Shown piece after piece: positions 7,131-44,779 of a DNA stretch of 64,000 bases. The notes beneath the pieces are model-generated. The model saw only the letters and a list, made by a program, of their open reading frames with translations, made no database searches and was not told where the DNA came from. The translations under genes were made by a program, and so were the position numbers. The first letter of the stretch is position 1; each line of letters begins with the position of its first letter. Origin of the DNA: Armatimonadota bacterium (GTDB lineage: Bacteria; Armatimonadota; UBA5829); the NCBI GenBank assembly GCA_012522575.1, contig JAAYKE010000028.1:575-64574 (forward strand). The letters run 5' to 3'.

Positions 7131-7137
7131 ATAAGAG

Positions 7138-7169
7138 GCAGATCACGCACGCTGGAAATCTGCTTTTAT
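7138..7169 (+). terminator. Rho-independent terminator after galE
   Basis: Stem gcagat/atctgc with a 14-nt loop, followed by ttttat. Confidence 0.75.
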
Positions 7170-7209
7170 GAATATCTGACCTGGCGGGTCAATTATCAAA
7201 GGAATTAAA

Positions 7210-11429: not shown

Positions 11430-13475
11430 ATGAAACTGCCCATTGGCTGGTTGAAGGAATTGCTCGACTATGAATGTCCGCCCAGGGAGCTTGCCGATAA
11501 GCTGACTATGGCAGGGCTTGAAGTTGAGGAGATAATGCAGCTTGAAGACGAAACGGTCTTCGATGTAAAGGTGACCCCAAACCGAGGCGATTGGCTGTCG
11601 GTGCTTGGCGTTGCCAGGGAAGCCGCGCCGCTTGTGGACGGGACTTTGAAAATGCCCGATCCGATAATCGAGGGCGCGTCTCCGGCGGCTGGTGAATCTA
11701 TCTCCATCGATATTGAGGACCCCGATCTGTGCTGCCGATATGTGGGCGCGGTGGTTCGCGGAGTGCAGGTCAAGCCGTCTCCGGGTTGGATGCAGTCCCG
11801 GCTGACAGCGGCCGGGATGCGGCCTATAAACAACATCGTAGACGCCACGAACTATGTGATGCTTGAGCTTGGTCAGCCTTTGCATGCGTTCGACCTCAGC
11901 CTTCTGCATAACTCGCACATTATCGTCCGCAGGGCCAGGGCAGGGGAGAAGATCATCTCCCTTGATGGCAGCCCTCGCGACCTCACAGAAGATATGCTGG
12001 TTATCGCCGACAGCGATCGTCCGGTGGCCATTGCGGGAGTTATGGGCGGGCTTGATTCTGAGATCAATGAGCAGACAAAAGATGTGGTAATCGAGGCGGC
12101 CAACTTTGCGGGCACAAGCATCCGCCGCACCTCCAAAAAACTCGGCCTTGTAACCGAGGCTTCATATCGATTTGAGCGCGGAGTTGACCCATCGATTGCT
12201 AAGAAAGCTGCGCTGCGTGCGGCTGAGTTGATATGCGAAATTGCCGGCGGAGAGGCCGCTCAGGGGACAGTGGACGCGTATCCCTGCGTCAAAGAGCCTC
12301 GGCAGATCAAAGCAAGGCCCGAAAGGGCAAACGCCGTTTTGGGAATAGAGCTTACCCCGCAGTCGATGGCGCAGCATCTCAACGCACTCCAGATTGAAAC
12401 TTCGCTGGAAGATGGCCTGCTGGTCTCTATGGTTCCGACGTGCCGCCCGGATGTCGTCAGCGAAATCGACCTTATCGAGGAAATCGGACGCGCTTCCGGT
12501 TATGAGAACCTGCCTTTGACTCTGCCGAAAGCTCGAACAAAAGGCATGGACAGCAAGGAAGGCCTGTTCAGGGACAGGATCAGACGAATTCTAATGTCCT
12601 GCGGCGCTCAGGAGACACTGACCCACAGCCTGGTTGATAGCAATCTTTCCGAGCTTTGCGGATGTGATGAGAGCATGATCCGCCTCCGAAATACGCTCAC
12701 CGAGGAGATAGACTCCCTGCGAGTGCGACTTGTGCCCAATTTGTTGGGCGTGATTGAGCGCAATCAGACTCATGAAATCAACGACGTATGCATCTTTGAA
12801 GTTGGAAAAGTATATTTCCGCACGCCCGAAGGCGTCATCGACGAGAAATTGGCGATAGCGGGAGCGATGTCCGGCAACTTGTGGCGAAATAGCTGGAACT
12901 TGTCGAGTGAGGCTCTGGACGCCGACTTTTTCCTTTGCAAGGGGACAATTGAGAACCTGCTGGACGCGCTCGGCATTAAGTCCGTGCAATTTGCTCCGAC
13001 AGAAGATACTTTTCTGCACCCCACCAGATGCGCGAAGATTCTGGTCGATGGAGTTGAGATAGGAGTTCTCGGCGAGGTGGCTCCGGGGATGCTGGAGGCG
13101 TTCGACGTGAAGGGTCGATCGCAGGTATATGAATTAGATTTTAACGCCCTTATGGGCTGTGTGCCGGATACGCTCACGTATCATCACGTGCCGAAATATC
13201 CCGCTCTGCGCATGCACATGGCGGTGGTAGTATCCGATGAAGTCAAATATGAGCAACTGCAACAAGTAATTGCACAATCCGGCGAGGGTTTTATTGAAAA
13301 AACCGAGTTGCTCGATGTATATAGAGGCGAGCAGGTAGGGACAGGAAGAACCAGCCTGACGATCTCGATGGTTTTTCGATCTCGCGAAAGGACTCTAACC
13401 GACGAGGAAGTCAACTCCGTCCTGGATAATGTAAAAAAGGCCCTGTCTCGCAATCTTGCAGCCGGTTTCAGGTAA
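11430..13475 (+). CDS. pheT: Phenylalanyl-tRNA synthetase beta subunit (short form lacking the B2/EMAP tRNA-binding domain)
   Basis: 681 aa. The B1 start MKLPIGWLKELL runs directly into TPNRGDWLSVLGVARE (B3/4), and B5 plus the FDX-ACB C-terminus are present. Confidence 0.9.
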   Translation: MKLPIGWLKELLDYECPPRELADKLTMAGLEVEEIMQLEDETVFDVKVTPNRGDWLSVLGVAREAAPLVDGTLKMPDPIIEGASPAAGESISIDIEDPDLCCRYVGAVVRGVQVKPSPGWMQSRLTAAGMRPINNIVDATNYVMLELGQPLHAFDLSLLHNSHIIVRRARAGEKIISLDGSPRDLTEDMLVIADSDRPVAIAGVMGGLDSEINEQTKDVVIEAANFAGTSIRRTSKKLGLVTEASYRFERGVDPSIAKKAALRAAELICEIAGGEAAQGTVDAYPCVKEPRQIKARPERANAVLGIELTPQSMAQHLNALQIETSLEDGLLVSMVPTCRPDVVSEIDLIEEIGRASGYENLPLTLPKARTKGMDSKEGLFRDRIRRILMSCGAQETLTHSLVDSNLSELCGCDESMIRLRNTLTEEIDSLRVRLVPNLLGVIERNQTHEINDVCIFEVGKVYFRTPEGVIDEKLAIAGAMSGNLWRNSWNLSSEALDADFFLCKGTIENLLDALGIKSVQFAPTEDTFLHPTRCAKILVDGVEIGVLGEVAPGMLEAFDVKGRSQVYELDFNALMGCVPDTLTYHHVPKYPALRMHMAVVVSDEVKYEQLQQVIAQSGEGFIEKTELLDVYRGEQVGTGRTSLTISMVFRSRERTLTDEEVNSVLDNVKKALSRNLAAGFR

Positions 13476-13536
13476 TTTGTGCCCAAAGTTGACGGTTACA
13501 GCGACCGACGATCGGCAACCGAAAGAGTGCTGTGCT

Positions 13537-15087
13537 ATGCAAACTGCGCCGATAGCATATAGGGTTTTTCGATGGACTTCAGTGGTCCTGGCAGTATGGC
13601 TGACGTGGGTTACGTGGGATGTTTTCCAGGTCAGGCGTGCTGATTTCGCGTCGGCGGCCTGGTTTCTTCTGGCCGGCATACTGGCTGAACTGCTGGTAAA
13701 GGGACAGGATAACGAGAACCGAACCGAGATCACCCCAAGCGCTCCGATCTACTGGGCGGCGGCCTGTGTATTAGGACCTCCGATGGCAATAGCCGTCTGC
13801 TTTGGAAGCTATATTTTTGCGGATATCATTGGCTTGATTGTCTTCGGGTTTGTCCGCAACATAGAAATCCCTCAAAACGGCTCCAACGGCAACGGCCTGC
13901 TATGGAAGCCGATTATTGGCAGATTGAAGCAGACCGGCAGGTGCTGGGAGCGACGACTGCAGGGTGACGGACAGGGCAGGTTGATCGAGACAACTCTGAG
14001 TTGTCCGTGTTCGCTGGTATTGTCCATCGGGCTTGCATCCGTTGTTTACCACTGGCTTGGCGGACGATTTTTGCTTGACGGCGGGCCGACTCATATATGG
14101 TTTGGTTTCATTTTTCCTTTTCTTGGGTTGGCGGCTACGGCGATTGCCCTTGACGTTGTGCAAAACGCTTTGGCCAGCGTTCTTTATGATCCCATTCCCC
14201 GCCAAAACGGTATTTTGGGTTGGCTGGCGCGAACAGGCAATGTGATTATAGGCAACGAGCTTCCGTTGATTCCTCCGCAGAGTCTGCTGGTCATCGTATC
14301 TATGATGCTGTCATATCTGTATGTAAACCTCGGAGCATGGGCGTTCATACTGACCAGTCTGCCGATAGTTGGGCTGCGGGACTATTATTATCAGCGAATC
14401 GCCGAGCAGTCCGCTTATCTGGATACGATAACCACTCTCGCTACCTATATGCAGCATTATCATCCCTATACCCGCGGTCACCTCAAGCGCGTCGCCGACA
14501 TTTCGGAGAAGCTTGCCAGGGAACTGCGACTCTCAGCGGAGAGCATAAATAATATTACCACTGCCGGTTTGCTCCACGATATCGGCAAGATAGGCGTAAG
14601 CGAGGAGATTCTAAATAAGACCTCAACGCTGGAGCCGGAGGAGTGGGATATGATCAAAGAGCACCCGGATAAAGGCGCCGAGATCATAAGCCATCTCGAT
14701 TTTGTGGAGGGCATTGTGGACTGGATACGCTACCACCACAAATGGCACGATGGCCGAGGCTATCCCGAAACAAATACGAGATCTGCGATCCCGATAGAGG
14801 CGTCGATCATAGCGGTTGCCGATTCCTTTGATGCAATGACCGACGACAGGGAACTTTCGCTGGAGTGGATATGCGACTCGTGCGGCTACAGTCCCGATGA
14901 TGACGGTCGTCCTGCCCAATGCCCGTTGTGCGGAGCGCATAAGCGACGAACATACAGGGTTCCGAGAACGCTCGAAGGGGCTATTGATGAGTTGCGCCGA
15001 GGCAGTGGCACGCAGTTTCATCCGGCGGTCGTGCAGGCGTTTCTGAAGATGCTGGACAAGGAAAGGATGCATACGGATGTTGCTTGA
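13537..15087 (+). CDS. Polytopic membrane HD-GYP phosphodiesterase (7TMR-HD-like N-terminal domain, HD-GYP catalytic domain, C-terminal Cys4 zinc ribbon)
   Basis: The N-terminal ~290 aa are multi-TM. An HD motif (LLHDIGKIGV) and HHKWHDGRGYP (HD-GYP) are present. The C-terminal CDSCGYSPDDDGRPAQCPLCG is a rubredoxin-like C-x2-C...C-x2-C ribbon. Confidence 0.8.
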   Translation: MQTAPIAYRVFRWTSVVLAVWLTWVTWDVFQVRRADFASAAWFLLAGILAELLVKGQDNENRTEITPSAPIYWAAACVLGPPMAIAVCFGSYIFADIIGLIVFGFVRNIEIPQNGSNGNGLLWKPIIGRLKQTGRCWERRLQGDGQGRLIETTLSCPCSLVLSIGLASVVYHWLGGRFLLDGGPTHIWFGFIFPFLGLAATAIALDVVQNALASVLYDPIPRQNGILGWLARTGNVIIGNELPLIPPQSLLVIVSMMLSYLYVNLGAWAFILTSLPIVGLRDYYYQRIAEQSAYLDTITTLATYMQHYHPYTRGHLKRVADISEKLARELRLSAESINNITTAGLLHDIGKIGVSEEILNKTSTLEPEEWDMIKEHPDKGAEIISHLDFVEGIVDWIRYHHKWHDGRGYPETNTRSAIPIEASIIAVADSFDAMTDDRELSLEWICDSCGYSPDDDGRPAQCPLCGAHKRRTYRVPRTLEGAIDELRRGSGTQFHPAVVQAFLKMLDKERMHTDVA

Positions 15088-15781
15088 GCTATTAGACTCC
15101 GGCGTGGCTGCGGTTTCGATAGCGGCTCTGTCTATGTCCGGAGCCAGCATATATGTTTCAAGGGTTGTGCTGCCCGCTAAGATGAAACGGGCCTATTTCA
15201 AATCTATCACTGCTCTTGCGGCGGCTGTTGAGACAAAAGATTCCGGCACCGTTGGCCATGCCAGACGAATTGCGGAATTGACGGTTGCGGTGGCTCGCAT
15301 ATTGGGGATAAACGGCAGGGAACTGGAGCGAATTGAGTATGCCGCCCTGCTTCGGGATATCGGAAAAGCCAGCATTCCGCAGGCTGTTCTTGCCAAGACA
15401 ACTCCGCTAACCGAAGAGGAATGGAAGATGGTGCAGTCACATACGCTTCTGGGGGCCGATATGGTGGCGTCGGTTCCGTTTTTGTCGGATACCGCGGATT
15501 ATGTGCGCCACCACCATGAGTGCTGGGATGGATCGGGATACCCGGATAAGCTCAAAGGAGAGGAGATTCCCTTCGGAAGCAGAATTCTGGCGGTGACTTC
15601 GGATTATGACGCGATGACTTCTCAACGACCATATCACGCTGAGCCGATGGATCCGTACAGGGCATTAGAGGAAATCAGGGCCAGCGCTGGCATAAAATAC
15701 GACCCTGCCGTGGTGGAGGCTTTTCTGGATGTATTTGGGGAGGGATTCGTGCTTGTGTCGGAGCTTGCAAGGGTGGCTTAA
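15077..15781 (+). CDS. Cytoplasmic HD-GYP domain phosphodiesterase
   Basis: HARRIAELTVAVARILG...LLRDIGKASIP...HHHECWDGSGYP...AVTSDYDAMTSQRPY. It overlaps the upstream HD-GYP gene by 11 nt. Confidence 0.85.
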   Translation: MLLELLDSGVAAVSIAALSMSGASIYVSRVVLPAKMKRAYFKSITALAAAVETKDSGTVGHARRIAELTVAVARILGINGRELERIEYAALLRDIGKASIPQAVLAKTTPLTEEEWKMVQSHTLLGADMVASVPFLSDTADYVRHHHECWDGSGYPDKLKGEEIPFGSRILAVTSDYDAMTSQRPYHAEPMDPYRALEEIRASAGIKYDPAVVEAFLDVFGEGFVLVSELARVA

Positions 15782-15815
15782 ATAATCGCACTCCGCCCTG
15801 CTGCAGGGAGAATAT

Positions 15816-17417
15816 ATGTTTGTTTCATCTGTGTGGCGTGACAGGCTGTCCCTGCTGAGCATTCTGGCAGTGGCCGCGGCTATGAGGTTCTGGGGTCTGG
15901 GGTGGGGCCTTCCCAACTTCCTGCGCTCATATTCATATCATCCTGATGAGTTTCTCGTCTTAGGCGCGGCGGGTTCGGCACTGGTTACCGGCTTGCCCGG
16001 TCTATACAACTACCCATCGCTGTTCATCTATCTGGTTGCACTGGCGATAGTATCTGTGGCCGCATATATACCGTCTCCGAGTATGGCGGAGATGTATCTG
16101 GCGGCCAGAGTCGTCACCGCAATAATGGGCGTATGCGCGATATTGCTCACCTATTGGGCGGCCAGACGATATTGGGGCAATCGCGAAGCCATCATTGCCT
16201 CCATAGCTCTGTGCATAGCTCCTCTGCACGTGCAGCATTCGCATTTCGCCACGGTGGATGTGCCTTGCACGGTCTTTGTTGCCGCCTGTCTGGGCTTTGC
16301 TGCTATGGTGTTTGGGCGCGGATCAATGCGCGATTACCTGCTCTGCGGGTTAATGGCAGGGTTGGCAGCAGGCACGAAGTATAATGCCGGACTGGTTGTG
16401 TTATCGTTGATTGCCGCTCATTTTCTTGGCAGCAGCCAGCGCAACGCAGGCTTGAGAAGGCTGCTTGCCGCTCTCGGAGGCGCATTGGCCGCGTTTGTCA
16501 TCTCCACTCCCGCAGTCATATTGCGACCCGGACATTTTTTTTACGGACTGACCTATGAACTCAGGCACGCATCCGAGGGCCACGGTTTGGTATTTGCCGG
16601 TACGGGTTCAGGTTTAATCTACACATTCACCTCATCTCTATGGTATGGTCTCGGCCCTGCGCTGGCCATATTCTTTTTGGCAGCATCGATCTATGCCGTA
16701 AGGACGAATAAGAAAGCATTGGTCATACTCGCGTTCGCGGTTCCGTATTACCTGCTTATCTCATTTTCACAGGTGCGGTTCGCGCGGTATGCCTTGCCGT
16801 TGTTTCCCGCCGCCGCCTTGCTGATAGCGTGGATGATCTGCGATATATGGACAAGGCTATCCAAACGCTGGCAATATGGATTGGCAGGTGCGTGTGCTGT
16901 CATATTATTGGGCACAATGTTATACACACTTGCACTGTGCCGCCTGTTTGTTATTTCCGACCCAAGGGATCGCGCTGCGGAATGGATTTTTGCAAATATC
17001 CCGACAGGCAGCGCCATTGGAGTGGCAGATGTCCCGTGGTTCTATTCCCCTCCCTACTCAAAAAACACAGGCTTTGGGACATTGCCACAGCGCGAAAAGG
17101 AAATGCGCAAGGCCCCATACTACCTGCAGTTGACCCGGTCAGGACAATATCGACACAGGCACTGGTGGGTAGTGTCGGATTATGAACTGGACGACGCGAC
17201 ACGGCTAAAGCGTGCATCGGAGCGTATGAGCGAATCCGACAGAAAAGAATGGGAGCGTCTGAGGGCTGCAAGGGAGGCTCTGGAAAAATACTACACGCGC
17301 CGCACATTCCGAAACTCTCTCAGCTTTTGCGGAATTTATCTCGGTTCTACCAGATCACTCCCTCATGATATGCGCTATTGCGCGCCGACTATATGGATAT
17401 ACGAGCGCAAAAAATGA
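15816..17417 (+). CDS. Glycosyltransferase family 39 (ArnT/PMT-like) polytopic membrane protein
   Basis: A 533-aa multi-TM protein with an early DE motif (YHPDEFLVLGAAGS) and ArnT-like topology. An RBS (gcagggag) is present. Confidence 0.8.
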   Translation: MFVSSVWRDRLSLLSILAVAAAMRFWGLGWGLPNFLRSYSYHPDEFLVLGAAGSALVTGLPGLYNYPSLFIYLVALAIVSVAAYIPSPSMAEMYLAARVVTAIMGVCAILLTYWAARRYWGNREAIIASIALCIAPLHVQHSHFATVDVPCTVFVAACLGFAAMVFGRGSMRDYLLCGLMAGLAAGTKYNAGLVVLSLIAAHFLGSSQRNAGLRRLLAALGGALAAFVISTPAVILRPGHFFYGLTYELRHASEGHGLVFAGTGSGLIYTFTSSLWYGLGPALAIFFLAASIYAVRTNKKALVILAFAVPYYLLISFSQVRFARYALPLFPAAALLIAWMICDIWTRLSKRWQYGLAGACAVILLGTMLYTLALCRLFVISDPRDRAAEWIFANIPTGSAIGVADVPWFYSPPYSKNTGFGTLPQREKEMRKAPYYLQLTRSGQYRHRHWWVVSDYELDDATRLKRASERMSESDRKEWERLRAAREALEKYYTRRTFRNSLSFCGIYLGSTRSLPHDMRYCAPTIWIYERKK

Positions 17418-18304
17418 TTGACCTGCACATACAACAATTTCTGGATTATGCCGTCATAGAACGCCGGCTTTCAGCCAAAACTCAGCAGGCGTATGGAAGC
17501 GACCTGTCTCAGTTCGCCTCATATCTCAAAGATGCCGGTATAAAAAAGGCCGGCAAAATCGACGAAAATACCCTGCTTGGTTATGCGGATATGCTCACCG
17601 CGCAGCAACTGCGGCCAACCAGCCTGGCCCGAAAGATGACCGTGGTGCGCAGTTTCATTAAATATCTCATAGGGTTAGGGCATGTATCCAATAGTTGTCT
17701 CGATAGCATCCCGAACTCTCGCCCTCCCCGCGTTTTGCCGAAACATCTCAATGTGGACGAGATCGCCCGCCTTCTTTCGGCTCCAGATATATCAAAAAGC
17801 ATCGGCCTGCGCGATCGGGCAATGCTGGAGACCCTTTACGCCACCGGCTTGCGCGTATCCGAACTGATTAACCTCAAAATAGACGATGTTAACCTAAAGA
17901 TGGGCTTTGTGCGCTGCGTCGGCAAGGGCAACAAGGAACGCATCGTGCCGATAGGTGAGATCGCAATACAACTGATAAATTCCTACATCGCAAGCGCAAG
18001 GGCGGAATTTACAAAGCTCGAACGATCGGAATATCTGTTCCTCAACTATAAAGGCAAGCCGATGACGAGGGGAATGTTTCATACCATTGTGAAAAAATAT
18101 GCGCTGTTGGCGGGCATAGACAGGCCGATCAGCCCGCACATGCTGCGTCACAGCTTCGCCACGCATATGCTCGAACGAGGAGCGGACCTGCGAAGCCTGC
18201 AGGAAATGCTGGGTCACGCGGGGATTGCAACAACTGAGCTTTACACACACGTAACCCGCGACCATTTGCGCGAAATATATAAGGAGGCTCACCCCAGGGC
18301 ATGA
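17414..18304 (+). CDS. xerD: Tyrosine recombinase XerC/XerD
   Basis: An N-terminal SAM-like core-binding domain and a C-terminal catalytic domain: ...HMLRHSFATHMLERGADLRSLQEMLGHAGIATTELYTHV (R...HxxR...Y). The ATGA overlap couples it with the upstream gene. The XerC versus XerD assignment is not resolvable by eye. Confidence 0.85.
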   Translation: MIDLHIQQFLDYAVIERRLSAKTQQAYGSDLSQFASYLKDAGIKKAGKIDENTLLGYADMLTAQQLRPTSLARKMTVVRSFIKYLIGLGHVSNSCLDSIPNSRPPRVLPKHLNVDEIARLLSAPDISKSIGLRDRAMLETLYATGLRVSELINLKIDDVNLKMGFVRCVGKGNKERIVPIGEIAIQLINSYIASARAEFTKLERSEYLFLNYKGKPMTRGMFHTIVKKYALLAGIDRPISPHMLRHSFATHMLERGADLRSLQEMLGHAGIATTELYTHVTRDHLREIYKEAHPRA

Positions 18305-20629: not shown

Positions 20630-22474
20630 ATGACACAAAAAACCGATCAAAATACTGCGGTAGCGGAACACGATACGCAAAAAAAGAAAATCACCCTTAC
20701 TATTGACGGTCAGGCGCTGACTGTCCCGGAAGGCACAACGATAATGCAGGCCGCAAAGAAGCTGGCCATTCATATTCCGCATATATGCTATCACCCGCAG
20801 TTGCACCTCGAAGGCTCCTGCCGCGTATGTTTAGTCGAGGTCGAGGGGATGCGAAATCCGGTGCCGTCTTGCAGCTATCCCGTGTTCGAAGGGATGGTCG
20901 TTCATACAAATTCCCCGGAAATACGGGAGATTCGCGCAACGATTATCGAGTTGTTGCTGGCTAATCACCCTATGGATTGTCAGACTTGCGAGCGCGATGG
21001 CAACTGCGAACTGCAATACCTGGCCTATATTTCCGGCGCTCGTGAGCGGCCTTATGAGGGCGAAAAGAAGCACAACGAGAAGGATTTCAGCTACGTTTCG
21101 GTTGTCAGAGACCCGGACAAGTGCATCCTCTGCGGACGATGCGTGCGCGTGTGCGCCGAAGTGCAGGGCGTGTCGGCTTTGGGCTATATCCATCGCGGCT
21201 TCAAAACATTCGTTGGCCCGGCATATAATGGCCCGTTTGCAGAAAGCGTGTGCATCGCCTGCGGCCAGTGCATCAACGTCTGCCCGGTGGCAGCATTTTT
21301 GGAAAGAGACCACACAAAAGACGTTATGGCGGCAATCGCCGACCCTGACAAACACGTGATCGTTCAGATAGCTCCCAGCGTTCGAGCTTCCATTGGCGAG
21401 GGATTCAACATCGCACCGGGTCTGCCTATGACCGGCCAGGCGGTGGCGGCCCTGCGCAGGCTTGGGTTTGATGAGGTATTCGACACCCAGATGGGCGCGG
21501 ATGTTACGATTATGGAGGAGGGCACCGAATTCGTCAAACGGCTCAACGGCGAAGGCCCGCTTCCTCTCATCACCAGTTGTTCTTCTGCGTGGATGAAGTT
21601 CGCCGAGCATTTCTATCCGGATTTGCTTGAGAATATCTCCAGCGCAAAGTCCCCGATGAGCATGCTTGGCTCGCTGATCAAAACCTATTATGCCGAGCGC
21701 AAGGGGATCGATCCGTCAAATATATTTACCGTTGGCGCGATGTGTTGCACGGCCAAGAAGTTTGAGGCGGCAAGGCCGGAGCAGCAGCTTGACATCGACG
21801 GCCAGCTTATGCCCTCCATTGACCGCGTAATCACCACGCGTGAGCTGGTTTGGATGATCAAAAACGCGGGGTTGGATTTTGCTCAGTTGCCTGCCGAGGA
21901 TTTCGATCCTGTGCTTGGAATCTCGACAGGGGCCGGTGCGCTGTTCGGAGCCACGGGCGGCTTGGCTGAGGCGGTCTATCGCACAGCATATTATCTGCTC
22001 ACCGGCGAAACTCTGGCCGAAGTGGTCGTAGAGGAAGTTCGCGGCATTGCCAAAGGCATCAAAACCTGGATAGCGCATATCGGGGACAGGTCTATAAAGG
22101 TCGGCGTTGCCCATGGCCTGGGCAATGCGCACAAGCTTCTCGGAATGGTTCGCAGAGGTGAGGGTGATTTCCACTTCATCGAAATTATGGGTTGTCCGGG
22201 AGGATGTATCGGAGGGGGCGGCCAGCCATACGCAAGAGCGGGAGAAGCAATGCCGCTGGATATCGAGACGCTCAAAAAACGAGCCGAGGCGCTGCGGGCT
22301 ATTGATGCAGGCAAGACCCTCAAACGATCCTATGAAAACCCTGATGTTGTGCGGGTTTATAAAGAATATCTGGGTGAGCCGAACAGTGAGCTGGCGCATA
22401 AGTTGTTGCATACAAAATACAAACCGCGCCTGCCTTTGGGCGTATGGAACCCGGACGTGATGCGAAACGACTAA
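20630..22474 (+). CDS. hydA: [FeFe]-hydrogenase catalytic subunit, M3-type architecture (2Fe-2S + His-ligated 4Fe-4S + 2x[4Fe-4S] + H-domain) with non-canonical L1/L2 motifs
   Basis: An N-terminal CRVC...C Fer2, then HPMDCQTCERDGNC, then CILCGRCVRVC and CIACGQCINVCP, then an H-domain with ITSCSSAW (L1), AMCCTAKKFEA (L2) and EIMGCPGGCIGGGGQP (L3). Confidence 0.85.
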   Translation: MTQKTDQNTAVAEHDTQKKKITLTIDGQALTVPEGTTIMQAAKKLAIHIPHICYHPQLHLEGSCRVCLVEVEGMRNPVPSCSYPVFEGMVVHTNSPEIREIRATIIELLLANHPMDCQTCERDGNCELQYLAYISGARERPYEGEKKHNEKDFSYVSVVRDPDKCILCGRCVRVCAEVQGVSALGYIHRGFKTFVGPAYNGPFAESVCIACGQCINVCPVAAFLERDHTKDVMAAIADPDKHVIVQIAPSVRASIGEGFNIAPGLPMTGQAVAALRRLGFDEVFDTQMGADVTIMEEGTEFVKRLNGEGPLPLITSCSSAWMKFAEHFYPDLLENISSAKSPMSMLGSLIKTYYAERKGIDPSNIFTVGAMCCTAKKFEAARPEQQLDIDGQLMPSIDRVITTRELVWMIKNAGLDFAQLPAEDFDPVLGISTGAGALFGATGGLAEAVYRTAYYLLTGETLAEVVVEEVRGIAKGIKTWIAHIGDRSIKVGVAHGLGNAHKLLGMVRRGEGDFHFIEIMGCPGGCIGGGGQPYARAGEAMPLDIETLKKRAEALRAIDAGKTLKRSYENPDVVRVYKEYLGEPNSELAHKLLHTKYKPRLPLGVWNPDVMRND

Positions 22475-22502: not shown

Positions 22503-22531
22503 GGCCGGGGTCTGTCCCGGCCACACAAATT
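22503..22531. repeat. GC hairpin, a partial copy of the dispersed repeat head (ggccggg-gtctgtc-ccggcc acacaaa)
   Basis: A perfect 7-bp palindromic stem directly after the hydA stop. The same ggcYgg...ccRgcc-RCAC-RAAC head starts the repeat copies at 22646 and 41402. It may double as the hydA terminator. Confidence 0.45.
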
Positions 22532-22645
22532 TCCGAAAATCGCGAAAGCCCGAAATAAGCGAAACCCGGAAAAGGGAAGGGAAAAAGCAGATTCCTCGGC
22601 ATTCGCCTCGGAATGACAATTTACCTGACGCATTCAGGCGCAATG

Positions 22646-22850
22646 GCTGGGGTGCATATCCCGGCCACACGAACTATGTCATTTCGAATGAAGTGAGAAA
22701 TCTGATTTTTTCGATGTCCGATGTCCGAAGTTCGAGCCGGTATCGCAAGGGGGTGCGCCACCCATCGTACGAAATCTGCTTTTACGGGAAACCGCAAAAC
22801 CCTCACAATATGCCTTCTAACCTCTAACTTCCAACCTCTAACCTCTAAAA
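22646..22850. repeat. Dispersed intergenic repeat, copy A (hairpin head, ~95-nt conserved core, CYAACYTC-rich tail)
   Basis: The core cacgaactatgtcatttcgaatgaagtgagaaatctgattttttcgatgtccgatgtccgaagttcgagccggtatcgc is ~90% identical to 41421-41504. The tail ctaacctctaacttccaacctctaacctctaaa resembles 41520-41549. Confidence 0.65.
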
Positions 22851-23136
22851 AGTTTAGCTCGGAACCTATTGACTTCTCCTCATATCTGACGTACATTGCC
22901 ATAATGGGATTCGCATACAATTGATTGTGTGATTAATCGATGTATGCGCCAATAATCTTAATAAGGCGCCTCGGATTAACAAGCTGAACGTGTTATAAGC
23001 AAAGCGAACATTCTGCTTTATTGGCAACTTAAAGCAAGTTTTTGTTATGCCTCAACCAACTGGTAATCATTTTTAACCAAAGCGATTGCGAGTCTGTTGT
23101 TAGCTGTGGCGTTGAAATTCTTTGGGGGTAGTGCAA

Positions 23137-26100
23137 ATGACAATGCAGCGCGTTTTATTGTATGCGCTCTGCGCGGTTCTTCTCGTTTCTGGTTTTGCCT
23201 ATGCCGATTTGGCTAAAAAACCTCTCCCGTTTTCTAATGTGCAGCCGTGGGACTACGAACTAGGCCCGATATTTGAGGCTGCATCTGCCAGATATCAGGT
23301 GCCTTTGCCGTTGCTTTTGGCATTAGGCCACTTCGGCAGCGCCTTCGAGAACCGGGGAGATTCTCCGACTATCGAGGGCGGATATGGAGTGATGGCTCTT
23401 CGTCAGAATGATATGGGAGGCAATTCCCTGGCCGAGGCAGCAGCTCTTACGGGCGTATCCGAGGAAGACCTCAAAACCAATGCCGAGCTTAATATTATGG
23501 GCGCGGCTGCTGTTTTGGATGCTTATGCCAAGCAACTGCAGGTCGATCGGACCGCCGGTGTTGATGCGTGGCTTGATGTCATCATCAAATACGCGGCCAT
23601 AGACAAAATCGACGAAGATAATCCGGTTCCGGTGTTCAACCGGATGTTTGCAATGGAGGTATATCAAAAGTTGCAGGCCGGAGTCGATACGACGAACTCT
23701 ATGGGCGAGACGTTCAACGCCTCTGCTCAGAATATCGGCTCAATCGACCTTGCCTCACTTGAGCCACCCGGAATGAAAGCCAACGTCACCGGCTATTCAG
23801 GGGCCACATGGTATCCGGCTGCTACCTGCAATTATTCGGCTGTTAGCACAAATAAGAGCGTATTTGTCGTGCACACAATCGAAGGCACCGCATCGGGATG
23901 TCTGGGTTGGTTTAGAAACTGCGCCGCGGAGACATCCTGCCACTATGTTGCATCTGAGGCGGGAGGCATCTGGCAGTGCGTCGACGAATGGCACAGGGCG
24001 TGGCATGTAGGTTGCGCGAATAATTATTCCATCGGATGCGAGCACGAAGGTTACGCAGCATCAGCAAGCCACCCAAAGACTATGTACGATGCCTCTGCGC
24101 TGCTTGCGCGAGACGTCTGCAACAGATGGGGTATCCCCAAAACACACAATCCATGCCAGCATTCAATTCTTGGACACGTCGATGTGAACAACTGCTGGTG
24201 CGGCCCGGGTCACTGGGACCCTGGCGCGGGATGGGACTGGACATACTACATAAATGCCGTAAACGGCACGACTTATGTCAACCCTCCGTATCTGTTCGGG
24301 AGCGGTGCGGAAGGTTGGACAGCCGGCAACAGCGTGTGGTCCAACGGCCTTGTCCATACCGGCTCTGATTGGCGCGGGTCCATATATTTTGACCAGACAG
24401 GCCCGGACTGCTATATATACAGCCCTGAGACCAACTTCACTGGCTCATCTCCGCAGGTACTCAACGTTGACTTCTACCCGCAGGCCGGCACCGGCACAGA
24501 CCACGATATGCAACTGCACTGGAGGACCGCCGCGGAAGGCTCGTTCTCTGCCGACAAGGCCAGCCCGCTTACGGGTTATCAAGGTCAAAATACCTGGAGG
24601 ACGGTCAACCTCAGTATCAATAGCTCAAAATGGACGGGCCAGACAATCAAACAGCTCAGGCTCGACTTCGATAACAACAATCAATCGACCAGATACATCG
24701 TCAACCATGTTGTGCTGCAAAACGCGCTGATCTGGCCGTTTAACAGCGACGTAAACGGATGGACTGCCGGTCACTCGTTGACGGAGACCTGGCACACAGC
24801 CGGTGGCTGGCCGGGGTGTCTGGTTACGGATCAGACCGGCAACGACGCATATATATATAGTCCGACCCTTTCCGGCGCCGGCCTGCCGTACAACTACATA
24901 GGCGGCGTAAATGACTGGGTTAAGGTTCGGGTGTATCCGCAGAACAGTTCGGGTACGGCCCACGACCTGCGAGTATACTGGATATACGATGGCGACGGCG
25001 CCTGGAATGACACCAAATCCGTCCCTGTAACCTACACTGGCAAGAATGGGTGGGTCGATGTCTACGTCCCGGTTGGGCAAAGCACTTACTGGGAGGGCAA
25101 GCACATGACCCGGCTTCGAGTCGACTTCGACGAGGTCAGCCAGGGCACTCGCTGGATTGTCGACGAGATATCAATTGTGCAACTCGGCAAGGACTCCACC
25201 GCCCCGACAGTTCCGACCGGGCTGAATGCAACAGCCGTATCCGGCAGCATTGTCGATCTAAGCTGGACAGCATCGACTGACGCTACTGGAGTCAACGGAT
25301 ACAAGATATTCCGAAACGGAACCCAGATAGCCACCAGCATTTCACCGTCATACAGGGATACCTCCTGTCAGGCGCAGACGACCTATTCATATACTGTCAG
25401 CGCCTACGACTCGGTTGGCAACAACTCGGCCCAGAGCGCGGCCAAGAGCGTGACTACTCTGGCCCCTGACAATCAGCCGCCTACCGTGCCCGCAAATCTG
25501 CGCGTAACGGGGACTACAACGTCCAGCATCTCCCTTGCGTGGAATGCTTCGACGGACAATATAGGCGTGGTCGGCTATCGCATCTATCGCAACGGCGCTC
25601 AAGTCGGCACAGCCACCGGGACTACATACAATGACACCGGGTTGGCTCAGTATTCGACTCATACATACGAAGTCGATGCCTATGATGCCACTCCGAACTA
25701 TTCTGCCAAGAGCGCTTCGGTACTGGGGACAACAGTCGCACTGGTCTTCCAGGACGGCTTTGCGAACCTCAACAACTGGGTTCTTGATCCGGTTGCGGGC
25801 AATAACGTAATGCCCACGCTATCCACTGCTCAAAATCACGGCAGCATATCCGGCGCCAATTCGTTGTATTTTTCCGACGATGCTCCGCACTGGGTATATC
25901 ATGACTTCTCAGACGAGCTTACTTCCGGCGGCTACAGAGCGGGTATTCTCTCCGGCTGGATGTATGACAACGCCGTAAGCAACATGAGAATCGCCTTAAG
26001 AGCATATATGTATGATGCTGCCGGCAATGCCACGGGCATGTATTGGATTGGCGTGACGAACGGCAACCCGCCGAACATCCCGCTCAAATATATGGCCGCT

Positions 26101-27447
26101 GTGTATAATAGCGGTTGGCAATACTTCGACCTTGGCGATCGCACCGAGGGTTGGCATAGATTCGCAATCGAGGTTCTGCCATATACTGGCTCAAACGACC
26201 TCAAGTTCTATATAGATGGAGCTTTGAAGCTGACTACCAACCAGCCTCCTACTGCCGCCAGCTCGACTCTCAAGCGCACGTATCTGGGCTACAACTACAC
26301 GCCCAACCAGCCAACTTACTGGGATGATATTGTTCTGGAGTCAGTTCCTCCGCTTGCGCCGACAGGTGTTTCAGGCACAGCTTTGTCAACTTCTGCCATC
26401 AGGTGGAACTTCACCGACAAGGCCAACAACGAGATAGGCCATCGGGTCTACAACGGCGCTACCAAGGTAGCCCAGCGCGAGGAGTTCGATATCAATTTCG
26501 TCGATGAGACCGGCCTGGCAGCTAACACGACCTACAACCGAACGGTCAAGGCGTATGCGGGCATCCTTGAAAGCCACGCCGCTGCCGGCAGTGGAGTTAC
26601 GCTTTCGGTTCCGCCGAGCGTCTCTAATGTGACCTGTGACAAAGATACCAACACCTGGTATGCTGATGGCAACTTCACATTCACCGCAGTCGGCGGATTT
26701 GGCGCAGGCAAGGTGGATCATTATCAATTCGCGTGGACCAAACAGGCCACGCATACGTGGGCAGGTTCTGAAGCGAGTTGGTCGAGCGGAACTTTGGTTC
26801 AGACTGCGACATCTACGGGCGGTTGGTATCTGCACTTGCGAGGATTCAACTCCGCCAACGTAGCTAATGGCACTCTTGATCCTGGCCCGTTCAACTTCGA
26901 CAGCGACAGCGTTGCTCCGCAGATCAATTCTGTATCAGTGACGCCTTCTATGGTCGCCAGCGGGGATGCGGTTCACGTGACTGTCGATGCCACTGACAAC
27001 ATCGGCGTTACCAGCGTCAAGGCCAACGGCGTTTCTCTGACTAACTCCGGCGGCAACATCTGGACCGGTGACGTCGCTGCTTTGGGCGGCCTGGGCATCC
27101 ATGAGGTGAACATTGTCGCCGAGGACGCCGCAGGTAACACTGCGACCGATTCGTCCGGTTCTTATCTGACTGCCCTTATCCGTGGCGCTTCCAACAAGGC
27201 CGCCCTGGGAGTTGAGATGAACGCGGCTTGCGCTATATATCTCTTCAAGTTCTGGGGCAGGGTAGCAGAGGTCGATGACAATACATTCACCCTCGACGAT
27301 GGCTCCGGTTCGCCTATTACGGTGAACGCTTCCGGCTACAAGAGTGTGATATCGACAGGTGACTACGCGGCCGCTCGAGGTATGCTCAGCATATCAGGCA
27401 GCGACCGCGCCATTCAGAGCGAGGTTAGCTGGATAACTAAGTTCTAG
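23137..27447 (+). CDS. Giant secreted multidomain protein (1437 aa): signal peptide, degenerate lysozyme/SLT-like segment, Amidase_2 (PGRP-type N-acetylmuramoyl-L-alanine amidase), duplicated ~140-aa beta-rich module, 2x FN3, LamG/ConA-like, FN3-like/Ig-like, and a C-terminal OB-fold-like module
   Basis: The Amidase_2 pattern is VVHTIEG...SCHYVAS...AWHVGCANNYSIGCEHEG...GHVDVNNCWCGPGHWDPG. The FN3 pattern is LSWTASTDATGVNGYKIFRNG...YSYTVSAYD. The C-terminus reads LFKFWGRVAEVDDNTFTLDDGSGSPITV. The start was chosen at ATG 23137, which follows the ggggg RBS (the ORF-track TTG is at 23122). Confidence 0.85.
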   Translation: MTMQRVLLYALCAVLLVSGFAYADLAKKPLPFSNVQPWDYELGPIFEAASARYQVPLPLLLALGHFGSAFENRGDSPTIEGGYGVMALRQNDMGGNSLAEAAALTGVSEEDLKTNAELNIMGAAAVLDAYAKQLQVDRTAGVDAWLDVIIKYAAIDKIDEDNPVPVFNRMFAMEVYQKLQAGVDTTNSMGETFNASAQNIGSIDLASLEPPGMKANVTGYSGATWYPAATCNYSAVSTNKSVFVVHTIEGTASGCLGWFRNCAAETSCHYVASEAGGIWQCVDEWHRAWHVGCANNYSIGCEHEGYAASASHPKTMYDASALLARDVCNRWGIPKTHNPCQHSILGHVDVNNCWCGPGHWDPGAGWDWTYYINAVNGTTYVNPPYLFGSGAEGWTAGNSVWSNGLVHTGSDWRGSIYFDQTGPDCYIYSPETNFTGSSPQVLNVDFYPQAGTGTDHDMQLHWRTAAEGSFSADKASPLTGYQGQNTWRTVNLSINSSKWTGQTIKQLRLDFDNNNQSTRYIVNHVVLQNALIWPFNSDVNGWTAGHSLTETWHTAGGWPGCLVTDQTGNDAYIYSPTLSGAGLPYNYIGGVNDWVKVRVYPQNSSGTAHDLRVYWIYDGDGAWNDTKSVPVTYTGKNGWVDVYVPVGQSTYWEGKHMTRLRVDFDEVSQGTRWIVDEISIVQLGKDSTAPTVPTGLNATAVSGSIVDLSWTASTDATGVNGYKIFRNGTQIATSISPSYRDTSCQAQTTYSYTVSAYDSVGNNSAQSAAKSVTTLAPDNQPPTVPANLRVTGTTTSSISLAWNASTDNIGVVGYRIYRNGAQVGTATGTTYNDTGLAQYSTHTYEVDAYDATPNYSAKSASVLGTTVALVFQDGFANLNNWVLDPVAGNNVMPTLSTAQNHGSISGANSLYFSDDAPHWVYHDFSDELTSGGYRAGILSGWMYDNAVSNMRIALRAYMYDAAGNATGMYWIGVTNGNPPNIPLKYMAAVYNSGWQYFDLGDRTEGWHRFAIEVLPYTGSNDLKFYIDGALKLTTNQPPTAASSTLKRTYLGYNYTPNQPTYWDDIVLESVPPLAPTGVSGTALSTSAIRWNFTDKANNEIGHRVYNGATKVAQREEFDINFVDETGLAANTTYNRTVKAYAGILESHAAAGSGVTLSVPPSVSNVTCDKDTNTWYADGNFTFTAVGGFGAGKVDHYQFAWTKQATHTWAGSEASWSSGTLVQTATSTGGWYLHLRGFNSANVANGTLDPGPFNFDSDSVAPQINSVSVTPSMVASGDAVHVTVDATDNIGVTSVKANGVSLTNSGGNIWTGDVAALGGLGIHEVNIVAEDAAGNTATDSSGSYLTALIRGASNKAALGVEMNAACAIYLFKFWGRVAEVDDNTFTLDDGSGSPITVNASGYKSVISTGDYAAARGMLSISGSDRAIQSEVSWITKF

Positions 27448-27690: not shown

Positions 27691-30600
27691 ATGAGACGGT
27701 TACAAGCAAGACTTGTTTTACTTTTTTGCGTAGTATTACTTACAGTATTTGCGGTCACGGCGCTGCAGGCCAGCGTGGTGGCCGTTCGTTTTTATGCACA
27801 CGGGGATCTCACTGCGGTCAATCGAGCAGTATCCAATGATGTTGCGGCTGCCGAGGCGGCAGTGCGTGCATTGGTTGCAGGGCCATTTGTGGAAGAGAGC
27901 GCGGTAGGCATCTATTCCCAAATCCCGGCTGGAACTAAAATCAAGAAGCTATCGATAGCGGGCAGCGCTGCGGAGATCGATCTCTCTTCAGAGATTCTGA
28001 CCGGCCTGGATGAAGAGAAATTGACCGACATCTTCAACCAGTTCCGCTCCACTGCCGGCGATTTTCCATCCATTACCTCAATCAAACTCACCTGTAATGG
28101 CAAGATTCTGTCTTCATATCTGCCCTCCGCTCCCGATATTGGAGAGCCTGCGCCGCCACTGATCAAGGGCAATGCGGTTGGCCTGAGCGGCAAGTATATC
28201 TGCGTTGGGCCATCGCATGGTCGCTTCTGGAACGGCAGCGGCTGGTATTGGCAGCGCTCTGACCCATGCGGGCTCGGCGAAGCCATTCTGGAGGACACCA
28301 ACAGCATCAGGCTGGTTCAGTATTTGAAGCAGTATGTTACTCAGGACAGCGGGATATTTGCCAGCGCGAGGGAGTTGGATGAAAGCAAATGCTGCCATCC
28401 CAGTACCGGTTTGGCCTGGTGGAAAATGTGTTCACAGTCGTATTTGCGCAATGCCGGCGTGCCCTGTTCCGTATGGGCGAGCTACACAGGCAACTGCGGC
28501 GCGGATAATGCTGCAGGCCGCAGCAGTGATGATATTCGCTGCAGACCTCTCTACGCGGACTGGCTGGGTTATCATATCTACATCGCCATGCACACCAACG
28601 CTGGCGGAGGAACCGGTACCGAGACTTTCTATGATGCAGCGATGGAAAAACCGGCCCACGTTACCAACAGCTATAACCTGGCCAACGCTGTAAATAATGG
28701 AATGGTCAACACCATCCGCAACACTTTCCCCGGCGAGTCGGGCTGGGCTAACAGAGGTGTCAAGAATGGGAACGGCGCCTACGGCGAAATTCGCATTCCC
28801 AACCGACCTGCAATCCTCGTTGAGTTGGGTTTCCACGACCATTGCACAAGGGATGCCGTCTACCTGACAAACGACTTCTTCCGTTCGGTCGCTATGTGGG
28901 GAGCTTACAGCGGGATCTGTGCATACTTCGGCAACACTCCGACCTGGGGCAAATATTCCTGCGAACTTGTCTCAAACACAATTCCATCCACAATGACCAC
29001 AGGCCAGACCTACAGCGCGACTATCACCTACCGCAACCGCGGCGTGGTCTGGATGAGCGCATATAACTTCAAGGTTGGCGCAGTATCAGCCAACGACCCT
29101 CTGATGACTACTCGGCTTTATCCCGTTTCCGGAACGATCAAGCCGGGCAGCAACGCAACTTTCACAATTTCCCTGAAGGCTCCGGCTACCGCAGGGACCT
29201 ATACCACCCAGTGGCAGATGATTCGTGAAGGTTACGAGTGGTTCGGTCCAACGCTTACGAAAAGCGTCACCGTCGTTGCTGCTACCGGCAACATCACCGG
29301 CACAGTTCGCAACGCTGCCGACAACAGCGTTATTTCGGGCGCAACAGTGGCGGTAACAGGCGGTTCATCGGCGACAACAAACGCCTCTGGAGTATACACA
29401 ATCAGCGGCGTCAATCCCGGAACATACACGCTTACTGTAAGCAGGACTGATTTTGTTACACAAACTGCGTCCGTTTCAGTGACCGCAGGAGCGACAACCA
29501 CCAAAGACTTCTCACTGCTGTCGTCTCTTCCTCCGACCGGCGCTATAAAGATCAACGCCGACGCCGAGTATACCAACAACTCCGCAGTGACACTGACCCT
29601 ATCCTCGCCGGATGCTGTTCAGATGCAGTTCAAAAACGAATCTGGTGACTGGAGCGCGTGGGAGAATTATGCGGCGACAAAGGCGTGGAACCTGAGCGCT
29701 GATGACGGCACAAAGACTGTCTTCGTTAAGTATAAGAGCGCCGCCAACATTGAATCCACTGCCACAATCAGCGCCACAATAGTCCTTGATACCACTCCGC
29801 CCACCGGCGCTCTTGAGATCAATTCAAACGCACAATACACCAATGCCGTGGGTGTGACGCTTACGCCATCATCGTCAGACGCCGCTCAGATGCAGTTCAA
29901 AAACGAATCCGGCGATTGGAGTGTGTGGGAGACTTACGCGACTGCCAAGGCCTGGTCTATTACGGCGGGCGATGGGACAAAAACAGTCTATGCCAGGTTC
30001 AAAGATGTTGCCGGCAACGTATCTACTGATACCATCAGCGCAACAATCACCCTCGACATAGTGCCTCCGACAGGCGCTATGGTCATCAATTCAGATGACA
30101 TCTACGCAAACTCCACATCCGTTATATTGACGTTGTCATCTCCGGATGCAGCTCAAATGCAGTTCAAAAACGAGTCGGGTTCCTGGAGCGCGTGGGAAGC
30201 CTATGCCACTAGCGCATCTTGGACTATGAGCGCTGGTGACGGTACAAAAACCGTATTCGTGCAGTTCAAAGACGCTGCGGGCAATGTATCCACTGGTACA
30301 ATTAGTGACAATATAATTCTGGACACAGTTCCGCCAACAGGCTCTATCGTTATCAATAGTCACGCCATATACGCTGTTGATGCAGATGTAACATTGGCTC
30401 TGTCTTCGCCGGATGCGGTTCAGATGCAGTTCAAAAACGACTCTGGCGAATGGAGTGCGTGGGAGAACTATGCCACCAGTAAGGCGTGGACCTTGAGCGC
30501 CGATGACGGGACAAAAACTGTCTATGTCCAGTTCAAAGACATCGCAGGCAACGTCTCCGTTGACACGATAAGCGACACCATAATTCTTGACACCACCCCG

Positions 30601-41253: not shown

Positions 41254-41398
41254 CGCCGCCAATGCCCCGCAAATGTCGTCACTGTTATGGTTGAGCGCTC
41301 CCTCGGCAAGGGTATTTATAAACCAAAGGGTAATTAACCGTTTCAAGTGAAAATAGAGGCGTAATATAGTATCAACTCACTCTTCGTGAGTGGTTGAA

Positions 41399-41577: not shown

Positions 41578-41689
41578 AGATAATCTATCAACGAACACCT
41601 GCTGTCCGAGACGGAGATCGGACACTACGGGCAGGATTGCTCATCATTCGTGAGCTGTTACGTAATATATCTTAAAATTGGCTGGTGAT

Positions 41690-44771: not shown

Positions 44772-44779
44772 GCATACAA

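Follow-up and report, generated by a model that had tools for sequence, protein, structure and literature searches.

A modular intergenic repeat of an Armatimonadota bacterium with a core hairpin resembling the targets of Ssn nucleases

Results

Organisation of the two repeat-bearing spacers

The window, that is, the entire stretch of 64,000 nucleotides analysed here, contains two copies (A and B) of a modular intergenic repeat. Copy A is situated in the spacer between hydA (20630-22474; iron-only hydrogenase by Pfam) and the gene for the first giant amidase protein (23122-27447), and comprises the following features:

22503-22529, plus strand: head hairpin 1, GGCCGGGGTCTGTCCCGGCC (GGCCGGG-GTCTGT-CCCGGCC, at 22503-22522), and ACACAAA; starts unit 1
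22530-22589, minus strand: spacer module of an inverted doublet, TTTCCGAAAATCGCGAAAGCCCGAAA...AAAAAGCA, read on the minus strand as the T-run and tail downstream of the reverse hairpin
22590-22617, minus strand: reverse hairpin GTC-ATTCC-GA-GGC-GAAT-GCC-GA-GGAAT-C (GTCATTCCGAGGCGAATGCCGAGGAATC), then TGCTTTTT; from a structural scan
22618-22644, plus strand: junction module AATTTACCTGACGCATTCAGGCGCAAT, a joint of reverse hairpin to head that is also present in L126 and L139
22645-22677, plus strand: head hairpin 2, GGCTGGGGTGCATATCCCGGCC at 22645-22666 (GGCTGGGG-TGCATAT-CCCGGCC; fold -7.4 kcal/mol), and ACACGAACTAT
22678-22702, plus strand: core 25-nt hairpin GTCATTTCGAATGAAGTGAGAAATC, a candidate protein recognition site of the SRM / CGTC-REP class
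22703-22746, plus strand: T-run and heptamer 5' arm, TGATTTTTT CGATGTCC GATGTCC GAAGTTC GAGCCGG TATCGC
22747-22816, plus strand: module of about 60 nt with a GGGTG-CGC-CACCC hairpin, a gap in the A/B alignment; also in L129
22817-22849, plus strand: heptamer tail of the CTAACCT type, forming the 3' arm of the long hairpin

Copy A is without terminal repeats; it is a mosaic in which two units, at 22503-22617 and 22645-22849, are combined. Unit 1 matches the inverted doublets of loci L124 and L126, and alignment with these doublets established that its 25-mer hairpin is cleanly absent, leaving a 33-nt gap at the exact site (the forward 25-mer plus 4 nt on each side), with the surviving partner hairpin located on the minus strand at 22590-22617. 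The module at 22530-22589 is approximately 90% identical to its counterpart in L124, L126, L131 and L136. As DNA, head hairpin 1 folds at -10.3 kcal/mol (z = -4.85) and the reverse hairpin at -5.5 kcal/mol, the ATTCC/GGAAT stem of the latter being a compensatory variant of ATTTC/GAAAT. Downstream of head 2 lies ACACGAAC, and unit 2 contains the forward 25-mer together with the additional module of about 60 nt, a segment that copy B lacks and that encloses a degenerate hairpin 3' half and T-run (GAAATCTGCTTTT, 22771-22783). The first-pass annotation of this DNA had reported a GC hairpin with ACACAAA, a second head and a CYAACYTC tail in this spacer, all of which are present, the tail lying at 22817-22849 and again, in copy B, at 41522-41550. 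What it termed a partial head at 22503 is indeed a head, but one that starts a second unit from which the 25-mer is missing.

Copy B is located in the hydrolase-to-HEPN spacer and is complete:

41361-41368, no strand: left target-site duplication GTAATATA, 8 bp, read from the sequence
41369-41661, plus strand: copy B, a complete 293-bp MITE-like element, with its ends set where similarity among the copies of assembly LSQX01 stops
41401-41420, plus strand: head hairpin, GGCTGG-TCTCTGT-CCCAGCC
41432-41456, plus strand: core 25-nt hairpin GTCATTTCGAACGAAGTGAGAAATC, the commonest exact form across phyla
41457-41553, plus strand: T-run, then a long imperfect hairpin of heptamer arm GAGGTCAGATGTCCGAAGTTCGAGC and tail GCTCTAACCTCCAACTTCTAACCTC
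41558-41577, plus strand: second, identical head, then the degenerate remnant of a further unit (CTATCAACGAAC)
41662-41669, no strand: right target-site duplication GTAATATA, 8 bp, a perfect match to the left copy

The left end of copy B reads GTATCAACTCAC (family consensus GTAACAACTCAC) and the right end GTGAGCTGTTAC, representing 12-nt terminal inverted repeats whose agreement is 11 of 12 bases in the family and 10 of 12 in copy B. At the left end GTAACAACTCAC is followed by a small hairpin, ACTCAC-TCTTC-GTGAGT, while the right end consists of GCTCAT-CATTC-GTGAGC and then TGTTAC; beyond these ends the flanks are unrelated among copies. The 25-mer of copy B is followed by TGCTTTTTT, and the 7-nt periodicity is common to both arms of the long hairpin because the GATGTCC heptamers pair with the CTAACCT tail. 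The last hairpin in left-to-right order is TGTCCGA...TCGGACA, and true tandem units, the counterpart of the copy B remnant, were found in L127 and L141. Between the two copies the head stems differ by a compensatory change (GGCCGG/CCGGCC in copy A versus GGCTGG/CCAGCC in copy B), and copy B folds better than each of 200 shuffled sequences, with z = -3.9 as DNA and z = -6.05 as RNA. The reverse hairpin at 22590-22617, the third head at 41558-41577, and the ends of copy B (41369 and 41661) with their 8-bp repeat had escaped the earlier annotation.

A dispersed family of modular units

The core segments at 22668-22746 and 41421-41507, which lie 18.75 kb apart, are identical at 75 of 79 aligned bases (95%), or at 86% when one 7-nt indel is counted, a 7-nt unit that is present in the copy B core and missing from copy A; the recurrence at roughly 90% identity that had been estimated previously is thus a fair figure. 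The 25-nt ATTTC/GAAAT hairpin GTCATTTCGAAYGAAGTGAGAAATC is found twice in the window (22678-22702 and 41432-41456) and in none of 100 dinucleotide-preserving shuffles of it. One further fragment was identified in the spacer at 7131-7209:

7155-7170, plus strand: relic GGAAATCTGCTTTTAT, 16 nt, consisting of the hairpin 3' half and T-run

A scan of metagenome contigs with the 3' half of the hairpin plus T-run as query returned 26 contigs, about 18 of which, all from assembly LSQX01, contain the complete composite unit (85-95% identity) within unrelated flanks. Besides copies A and B there are consequently at least 17 further copies with differing flanks, on contigs that probably derive from the same organism as the window or from closely related ones; the G+C content of the LSQX01 contigs bearing the unit (0.51-0.54) matches that of the window. 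The repeat is therefore not confined to the two places from which it was first described. Several LSQX01 contigs harbour two or three copies and many start or stop inside a unit, and public short-read assemblies likewise break inside the 25-mer (L117; L151, in at least 20 samples; L148; L149). DNA identical to the window was found in ENA ERZ941572/SRR3166067 and JGI 3300038805, the source being an anaerobic-digester metagenome. A search of a plasmid collection for the element gave no match, and the hairpin does not appear to be phage-borne, since it matched only once among 2.9 million viral contigs.

Each unit is a chain of DNA hairpins, namely a GC-rich head, the 25-nt core, a T-run and a long imperfect hairpin of 7-nt repeats, and units occur singly, in tandem, as inverted doublets or, as in copy B, enclosed by terminal inverted repeats and flanked by an 8-bp duplication of the target site.

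Copy B is an insertion

For both the nucleoside hydrolase and HydA the closest named relatives come from Armatimonadota MAGs, and the gene order pgm-serS-hydrolase-HEPN is retained in two relatives, JBMNES01 (L144) and CAZBSI01 (L147). In these the hydrolase-to-HEPN spacer measures 134 nt and 124 nt, respectively, versus 436 nt in the window; subtraction of the element and of one 8-bp repeat (436-293-8) leaves 135 nt. This support for an empty site consists of length and synteny, as the L144 and L147 spacers are too diverged for base-level alignment of the junction. The 12-nt terminal inverted repeats and 8-bp duplication indicate that the units insert as mobile DNA, although the perfect duplication is the only one seen: in the other clean complete copy (L137) the duplication matches at 5 of 8 bases, and L126 is rearranged. 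The earlier suggestion of a dispersed REP/MITE-like repeat is thus upheld by its multiple copies, by the terminal repeats and perfect 8-bp target-site duplication of copy B, and by its absence from the orthologous spacer of two relatives.

Copies occupy different spacers in the relatives. L144 carries a unit in the pgm-serS spacer, and L147 harbours a five-unit tandem array with a 177-nt period, annotated as a 342-aa gene, and another unit downstream of HEPN. In L150, the closest relative found (HydA 92% identical), hydA-giant1-giant2 is syntenic and the 595-nt hydA spacer holds a different mosaic with two tandem exact 25-mers. As synteny is kept and the repeats lie in different spacers in each genome, the gene block is ancestral and the repeats are gained and lost. 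The first-pass annotation had also raised the possibility that the copies mark the boundaries of an inserted block, a proposal at odds with the conservation, each in a relative, of the orders hydA-giant1-giant2 and giant2...pgm-serS-hydrolase-HEPN, and with the varying location of the repeats; it is copy B itself that is the insertion. No GTAACAACTCAC ends were found beside hairpins in the related genomes, and these ends consequently look lineage-specific.

The core hairpin is found in many phyla and its stem covaries

The core 25-mer is GTC-ATTTC-GA-AC-GAA-GT-GA-GAAAT-C, which consists of GTC, an ATTTC stem, tandem G.A pairs, a two-pair inner stem, a GNA triloop and C; all three window hairpins are of the form GTC-palindrome-C. 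A scan with GTCATTTCGANNGAAGTGAGAAATC as query, restricted to one genome per species, located the exact 25-mer at no fewer than 114 genome loci in at least 12 phyla as judged by record title. These titles name Bacteroidota (including isolates and complete genomes), Chloroflexota, Ignavibacteria, Nitrospirota, Deltaproteobacteria, Armatimonadota, Clostridia, Alpha-, Beta- and Gammaproteobacteria, Planctomycetia, Fibrobacter, Eisenbacteria, Methylomirabilota and Peribacteria; most loci come from MAGs, so that each assignment carries a binning risk, and several matches lie on megabase contigs. At many of the loci an inverted partner is present 10-60 nt further on. When the hairpin was searched for in the literature as a text string, only unrelated primers were retrieved.

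Covariation was assessed in a set in which GTCA, CGA, GAG and TC were fixed and three stem positions left free. All three free positions are paired in 81 of 94 unique sequences, with nine types of complementary triplet. In a set of 38 unique 25-mers, compensatory changes were observed at five of seven pairs and 95.9% of cells are paired; the corresponding figure is 84% in shuffles, none of 500 of which reached the observed value, and does not exceed 59% for slid partners. The inner pair varies among A-T, C-G and G-C, the triloop is GNA in 21 of 31 variants, and longer variants carry a perfect stem-loop at the centre. The G.A/A.G internal loop forms part of the search anchor, so that its invariance in the anchored set is uninformative; a stem-only scan lacking that anchor nevertheless recovered the loop in all 20 hairpins beside ssn genes that had been selected by protein. 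Covariation of the stem argues that the hairpin-forming palindrome is maintained by selection. The isolated 25-nt hairpin is weak (-1.3 to -2.3 kcal/mol by nearest-neighbour rules), which favours protein recognition over bulk stability. A C-GNA-G triloop combined with sheared G.A pairs is a classic example of an unusually stable DNA mini-hairpin.

A single-domain GIY-YIG gene accompanies the hairpin in other genomes

Unbiased clustering of the ORFs within 400 nt of the 25-mer at the 114 loci identified, as the top recurrent family, a single-domain GIY-YIG protein of about 98 aa (Pfam PF01541). Of the 114 loci, 6 contain the gene, always at a distance of 8-194 nt from the 25-mer. At least four of these genes are bracketed by hairpins of the class, with the flanking pair inverted in L063, L081 and L092, and two of the six are truncated at a hairpin. 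The reverse test gave the same association, as three of three homologues chosen by protein similarity alone, from Caldithrix abyssi (complete genome), a Burkholderiales MAG and a Melioribacteraceae MAG, have hairpins on both sides within about 250 nt, with several per gene in the form GTCATTTCGA...GAGAAATC. In total, nine loci in other genomes have a class hairpin within about 250 nt of a gene for a GIY-YIG protein of about 98 aa, and the hairpin class is tightly linked to Ssn-like genes in those genomes. Pfam PF01541, a size of about 98 aa and a single domain were confirmed for the genes, which are putatively cd10448-like.

The subfamily is very large, with at least 8000 candidates at E <= 1e-10. 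The best 120 homologues are 66-91% identical to the query where identity was given, their named organisms span several phyla, and none of them is labelled Armatimonadota in a profile search in which most matches are without an organism name. Searches by tblastn and HMM of the window and approximately 270 kb of contigs of the lineage, about 330 kb in all and covering the LSQX01 contigs and Armatimonadota loci, detected no Ssn-like ORF.

Discussion

Relationship to known repeats and to the Ssn system

Ssn is a single-domain GIY-YIG protein of CDD family cd10448, and its partnership with hairpins was first demonstrated in 2025 by Chenal et al. in four alpha- and betaproteobacterial species (PMC11893778). 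It binds the Neisseria NTS hairpin CGTCATTCCCGCGMAVGCGGGAATCYRG, which contains dRS3, only as ssDNA and does not bind RNA; binding requires the C that follows the palindrome, and cutting, which takes place a few bases upstream, requires the three bases (GTC) that precede it (PMC11893778). The ssn genes are typically flanked by hairpins, in the layout NTS-ssnA-NTS, and the system reduces the transformation of N. meningitidis by DNA that carries NTS (PMC11893778). In common with SRM, NTS and dRS3, the class described here is an oriented hairpin having GTC directly 5' of an AT-starting palindrome and C directly 3', with hundreds of mostly intergenic and often clustered copies, and with inverted hairpins bracketing a single-domain GIY-YIG gene of about 95-100 aa. 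It differs in that a stem of only 5 bp, followed by a conserved internal loop of tandem G.A pairs and an inner stem-loop that varies, takes the place of a perfect stem of 8-9 bp, in that the identical 25-mer is common to distant phyla, and in that the cognate ssn was not seen in the approximately 330 kb of the window lineage. The published SRM motif, HGTCWYN(0-2)YYVSBRHN(0-5)WNVSBRGN(0-2)RNCYNB, matches none of 173 unique class hairpins and gives no match in the window, where all three hairpins fail it. Judged by its form, the window hairpin may accordingly be viewed as a variant within the SRM / CGTC-REP kind that the published search motif sets apart.

Di Nocera et al. (2013, PMC3733652) described CGTC-tagged REPs, in which the tag is often TGTC and stems start with A-T, and whose dedicated transposase was then unknown. 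The window class shares with these an unpaired CGTC/TGTC tag, a stem of A-T then T-A, a short tail, frequent dimers and the lack of an associated tyrosine transposase; the published families, however, have 8-9-bp stems and 4-5-nt loops and are known from five phyla (PMC3733652), whereas in the window class G.A mismatches interrupt the stem, the loop is of 3 nt, and the distribution extends to further phyla, among them Armatimonadota, Chloroflexota, Nitrospirota and Ignavibacteria. Similar to the NIMEs of Neisseria and the enterobacterial BIMEs, the elements are intergenic mosaics in which small hairpins alternate with longer modules that are gained and lost between copies, although the module sequences are different and terminal inverted repeats and a target-site duplication enclose at least one of the present copies. 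The size of about 290 bp, terminal inverted repeats, 8-bp duplication, multiple copies, intergenic location and strong folding are reminiscent of MITEs such as Correia/NEMIS and Nezha; unlike in MITEs, the interior is a chain of REP-like hairpins that has also spread without terminal repeats, and a parent insertion sequence was not seen in the loci retrieved.

Interpretation of the element

Copy B is a MITE-like insertion and copy A a rearranged mosaic, and in kind this is ordinary REP/MITE biology. The explanation that we consider probable, taken as a whole, is that the family represents non-autonomous modular intergenic repeats of an uncultured Armatimonadota bacterium from anaerobic digesters, with a core hairpin of the Ssn-target type. 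In form, the core belongs to the CGTC-tagged REP / Ssn-related motif class, of the Neisseria dRS3/NTS kind, and TATGTCATTTCGAACGAAGTGAGAAATCTGC as ssDNA would then be a candidate Ssn substrate by analogy. In the known system Ssn binds the folded ssDNA hairpin and nicks a few bases upstream of GTC; by the same token an Ssn-type enzyme may act on the window copies in the source organism, and such action could contribute to the spread, loss or recombination of the copies. Several observations run counter to this explanation, namely the lack of an Ssn-like ORF in the approximately 330 kb searched and of an Armatimonadota label among the best 120 homologues, the failure of all 173 class hairpins to fit the published motif, and the terminal inverted repeats with 8-bp duplication, which are the signature of a DDE-type transposase and not of a single-strand nuclease. 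As regards mobility, the perfect duplication is a single case, and the divergence of the relatives' spacers leaves the empty site without base-level support.

Since the terminal inverted repeats and their duplication point to a DDE-type transposase, the hairpin could be a passenger, and the element would then be an ordinary MITE in which such a transposase recognises the GTAACAACTCAC ends and the Ssn-type hairpin, being inherited, has no role here. The apparently lineage-specific nature of those ends and the absence of an ssn gene from the DNA of the lineage that was searched are in keeping with that reading, which we nevertheless regard as unlikely, given that none of the retrieved loci showed a transposase gene with such ends, that conservation within the unit is highest at the hairpin, that the exact 25-mer or close variants of it together with the TGCTTTTT run are kept in relatives without inverted-repeat ends, and that copy A and the doublets have spread or been rearranged without the GTAACAACTCAC ends.

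A bolder extension of the explanation that invokes an Ssn-type enzyme is possible, though we hold it to be doubtful: hairpins of the form GTCATTTCGA...GAGAAATC and their highly conserved GIY-YIG partner of about 98 aa may constitute a ssDNA nuclease/hairpin system that moves horizontally across at least 12 phyla. Nicking at the hairpin would drive its own excision and copying and would seed lineage-specific mosaics and MITEs, of which the Armatimonadota element would be an example, and both the clean 33-nt absence of the hairpin from unit 1 and the 7-nt arrays beside hairpins might be by-products of nicking. Arrays of 7-nt repeats do adjoin the hairpins in several phyla. If this were true, the long-orphan CGTC-REP super-family would gain a mobilising enzyme and a mechanism.

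It is less probable still that the element works as RNA, i.e. as an intrinsic terminator, as a 3'-UTR stabiliser of the kind proposed for REPs, or as a small RNA encoded in the spacer. The strong RNA fold of the 293-nt element and the T-run after the hairpin are compatible with such a role, as is the orientation of both window copies, which point the same way as both flanking genes; about half of the LSQX01 copies are likewise downstream of a co-oriented ORF, although the ORFs were crudely called and these positions are indicative. Elements that depend on ssDNA favour the lagging-strand template. Co-orientation with genes does not single out an RNA function, as it is equally expected if the hairpins favour that template, and by the same crude ORF calls other copies are found between divergent ORFs or are oppositely oriented. 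Rfam searches, of the window at gathering thresholds and of the spacer at E <= 10, gave only chance-level hits to snoR118 and NsiR4, and a consensus scan found no terminator or promoter site inside either element. The hairpin itself is weak, its triloop and G.A pairs are those of the DNA mini-hairpin referred to above, and Ssn, for its part, does not bind RNA (PMC11893778). These results, with the copies in both orientations and at divergent-ORF positions, speak against the small-RNA or terminator function that the first-pass annotation had put forward; the T-run that it noted after the internal stem does exist, but in the doublets it pairs with an A-run and is one arm of a longer inverted repeat. 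A hammerhead-like or other ribozyme (GUC, hairpin and CUGA) was considered separately and rejected, as the bases after the hairpin vary between loci.

Mobilisation of a REP/REPIN family by RAYT, an IS200/IS605-type tyrosine transposase, is highly improbable despite the inverted doublets of small tagged hairpins and the BIME-like mosaic clusters, given that the tag is (T/C)GTC (TGTC in the window) and not GTAG, that GIY-YIG is the sole recurrent gene family beside the 25-mer at the 114 loci, where no tyrosine-transposase cluster was recovered, and that Di Nocera et al. found no RAYT adjacent to CGTC repeats (PMC3733652).

Significance

The findings extend a recently recognised system to a hairpin conserved exactly across phyla, a structurally distinct class, with tandem G.A loop and GNA triloop, that the published motif misses and that is equally tightly linked to a conserved Ssn subfamily, and which in Armatimonadota forms part of a larger element whose insertion generates a target-site duplication. 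If biochemistry confirms the pairing of enzyme and hairpin, an enzyme family that is wanted as a source of ssDNA tools would gain a new sequence specificity, and there would be a tractable case in which to determine whether Ssn nucleases mobilise their own hairpins. At a practical level, the repeats fragment metagenome assemblies and give rise to spurious ORFs, the 342-aa 'gene' of L147 being an example.

Absence of a hairpin and disruption of presumed partner genes

The 25-mer, the core hairpin of the modular intergenic repeat family (GTC, an ATTTC/GAAAT stem and C), is absent in forward orientation from unit 1, the first part of the mosaic copy in the spacer between hydA and the giant-protein gene, where alignment against the inverted hairpin doublets L124:1-175(-) and L126:1-215(-) revealed a clean 33-nt gap at 22523-22530 comprising CTAT, the hairpin and TGC. 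The unit 1 sequence to the left and right of this gap can still be aligned with the doublets found at other sites. On its left side the gap starts 4 nt upstream of GTC, near the reported cut position of Ssn, a small single-domain GIY-YIG nuclease acting on single-stranded DNA.

At two 25-mer loci Ssn-like GIY-YIG genes (L063 6244-6417 and L068 7125-7349) are cut off exactly at a hairpin of this class, their translations starting or finishing in hairpin-encoded residues (for example ...EMTTER), so that copies of the presumed partner gene are likewise disrupted by the hairpins. Within the Ssn-like subfamily associated with the hairpin, the best 120 matches (P0241-P0360) share 66-91% identity with the query. 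Those with a named organism include Chloroflexi, Burkholderiales, Caldithrix, Scalindua and Ignavibacteria, and many matches are located on very short contigs; together, these observations suggest recent horizontal spread combined with assemblies broken at repeats.

Hairpin units in a related genome

In the related metagenome-assembled genome (L147), positions 7620-8648 between pgm and serS were called as a 342-aa gene without a Pfam match; this region is a tandem array of five hairpin units with a 177-nt period, and the gene call is a spurious ORF. Synteny with the window stops just past HEPN, and the sequence at that point (11824-17939) encodes a serine recombinase, a TraG/TrwB-like ATPase, a DNA methyltransferase and HTH regulators; this block probably represents an integrated mobile element. 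A further unit is positioned at the junction:

L147 11586-11610: hairpin unit, between the syntenic part and the recombinase/ATPase block

Sequence context in the window and at other loci

The window contains a third site of the repeat family, situated in the 7131-7209 spacer:

7155-7170: relic of the hairpin 3' half and the following T-run, GGAAATCTGCTTTTAT

The forward hairpins of the window are all on the G-rich strand, upstream of a switch at about 44000-46000, where cumulative GC skew reaches its maximum; the main ORF strand flips from plus to minus near 45.7 kb, and this combination is the pattern expected for a replication terminus or another switch of replication direction. A coding repeat was also detected within the 1795-aa amidase/Ig-like giant protein, with ten tandem copies of 267 nt (89 aa) at 29531-32457 sharing 64-73% identity.

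Of 117 instances of the 25-mer, 6-10, from different phyla, have runs with a 7-nt period no more than 120 nt away, as compared to 0-4 for periods 4-6 and 8-11. The runs were assigned to loci L033, L077, L078, L090, L099 and L103, and the GATGTCC and CTAACCT heptamers of the window exemplify this periodicity.

Independent short-read assemblies stop within or directly after the 25-mer (ends of L117, L151, L148 and L149), a practical signature which could help to find the repeat family in other metagenomes.
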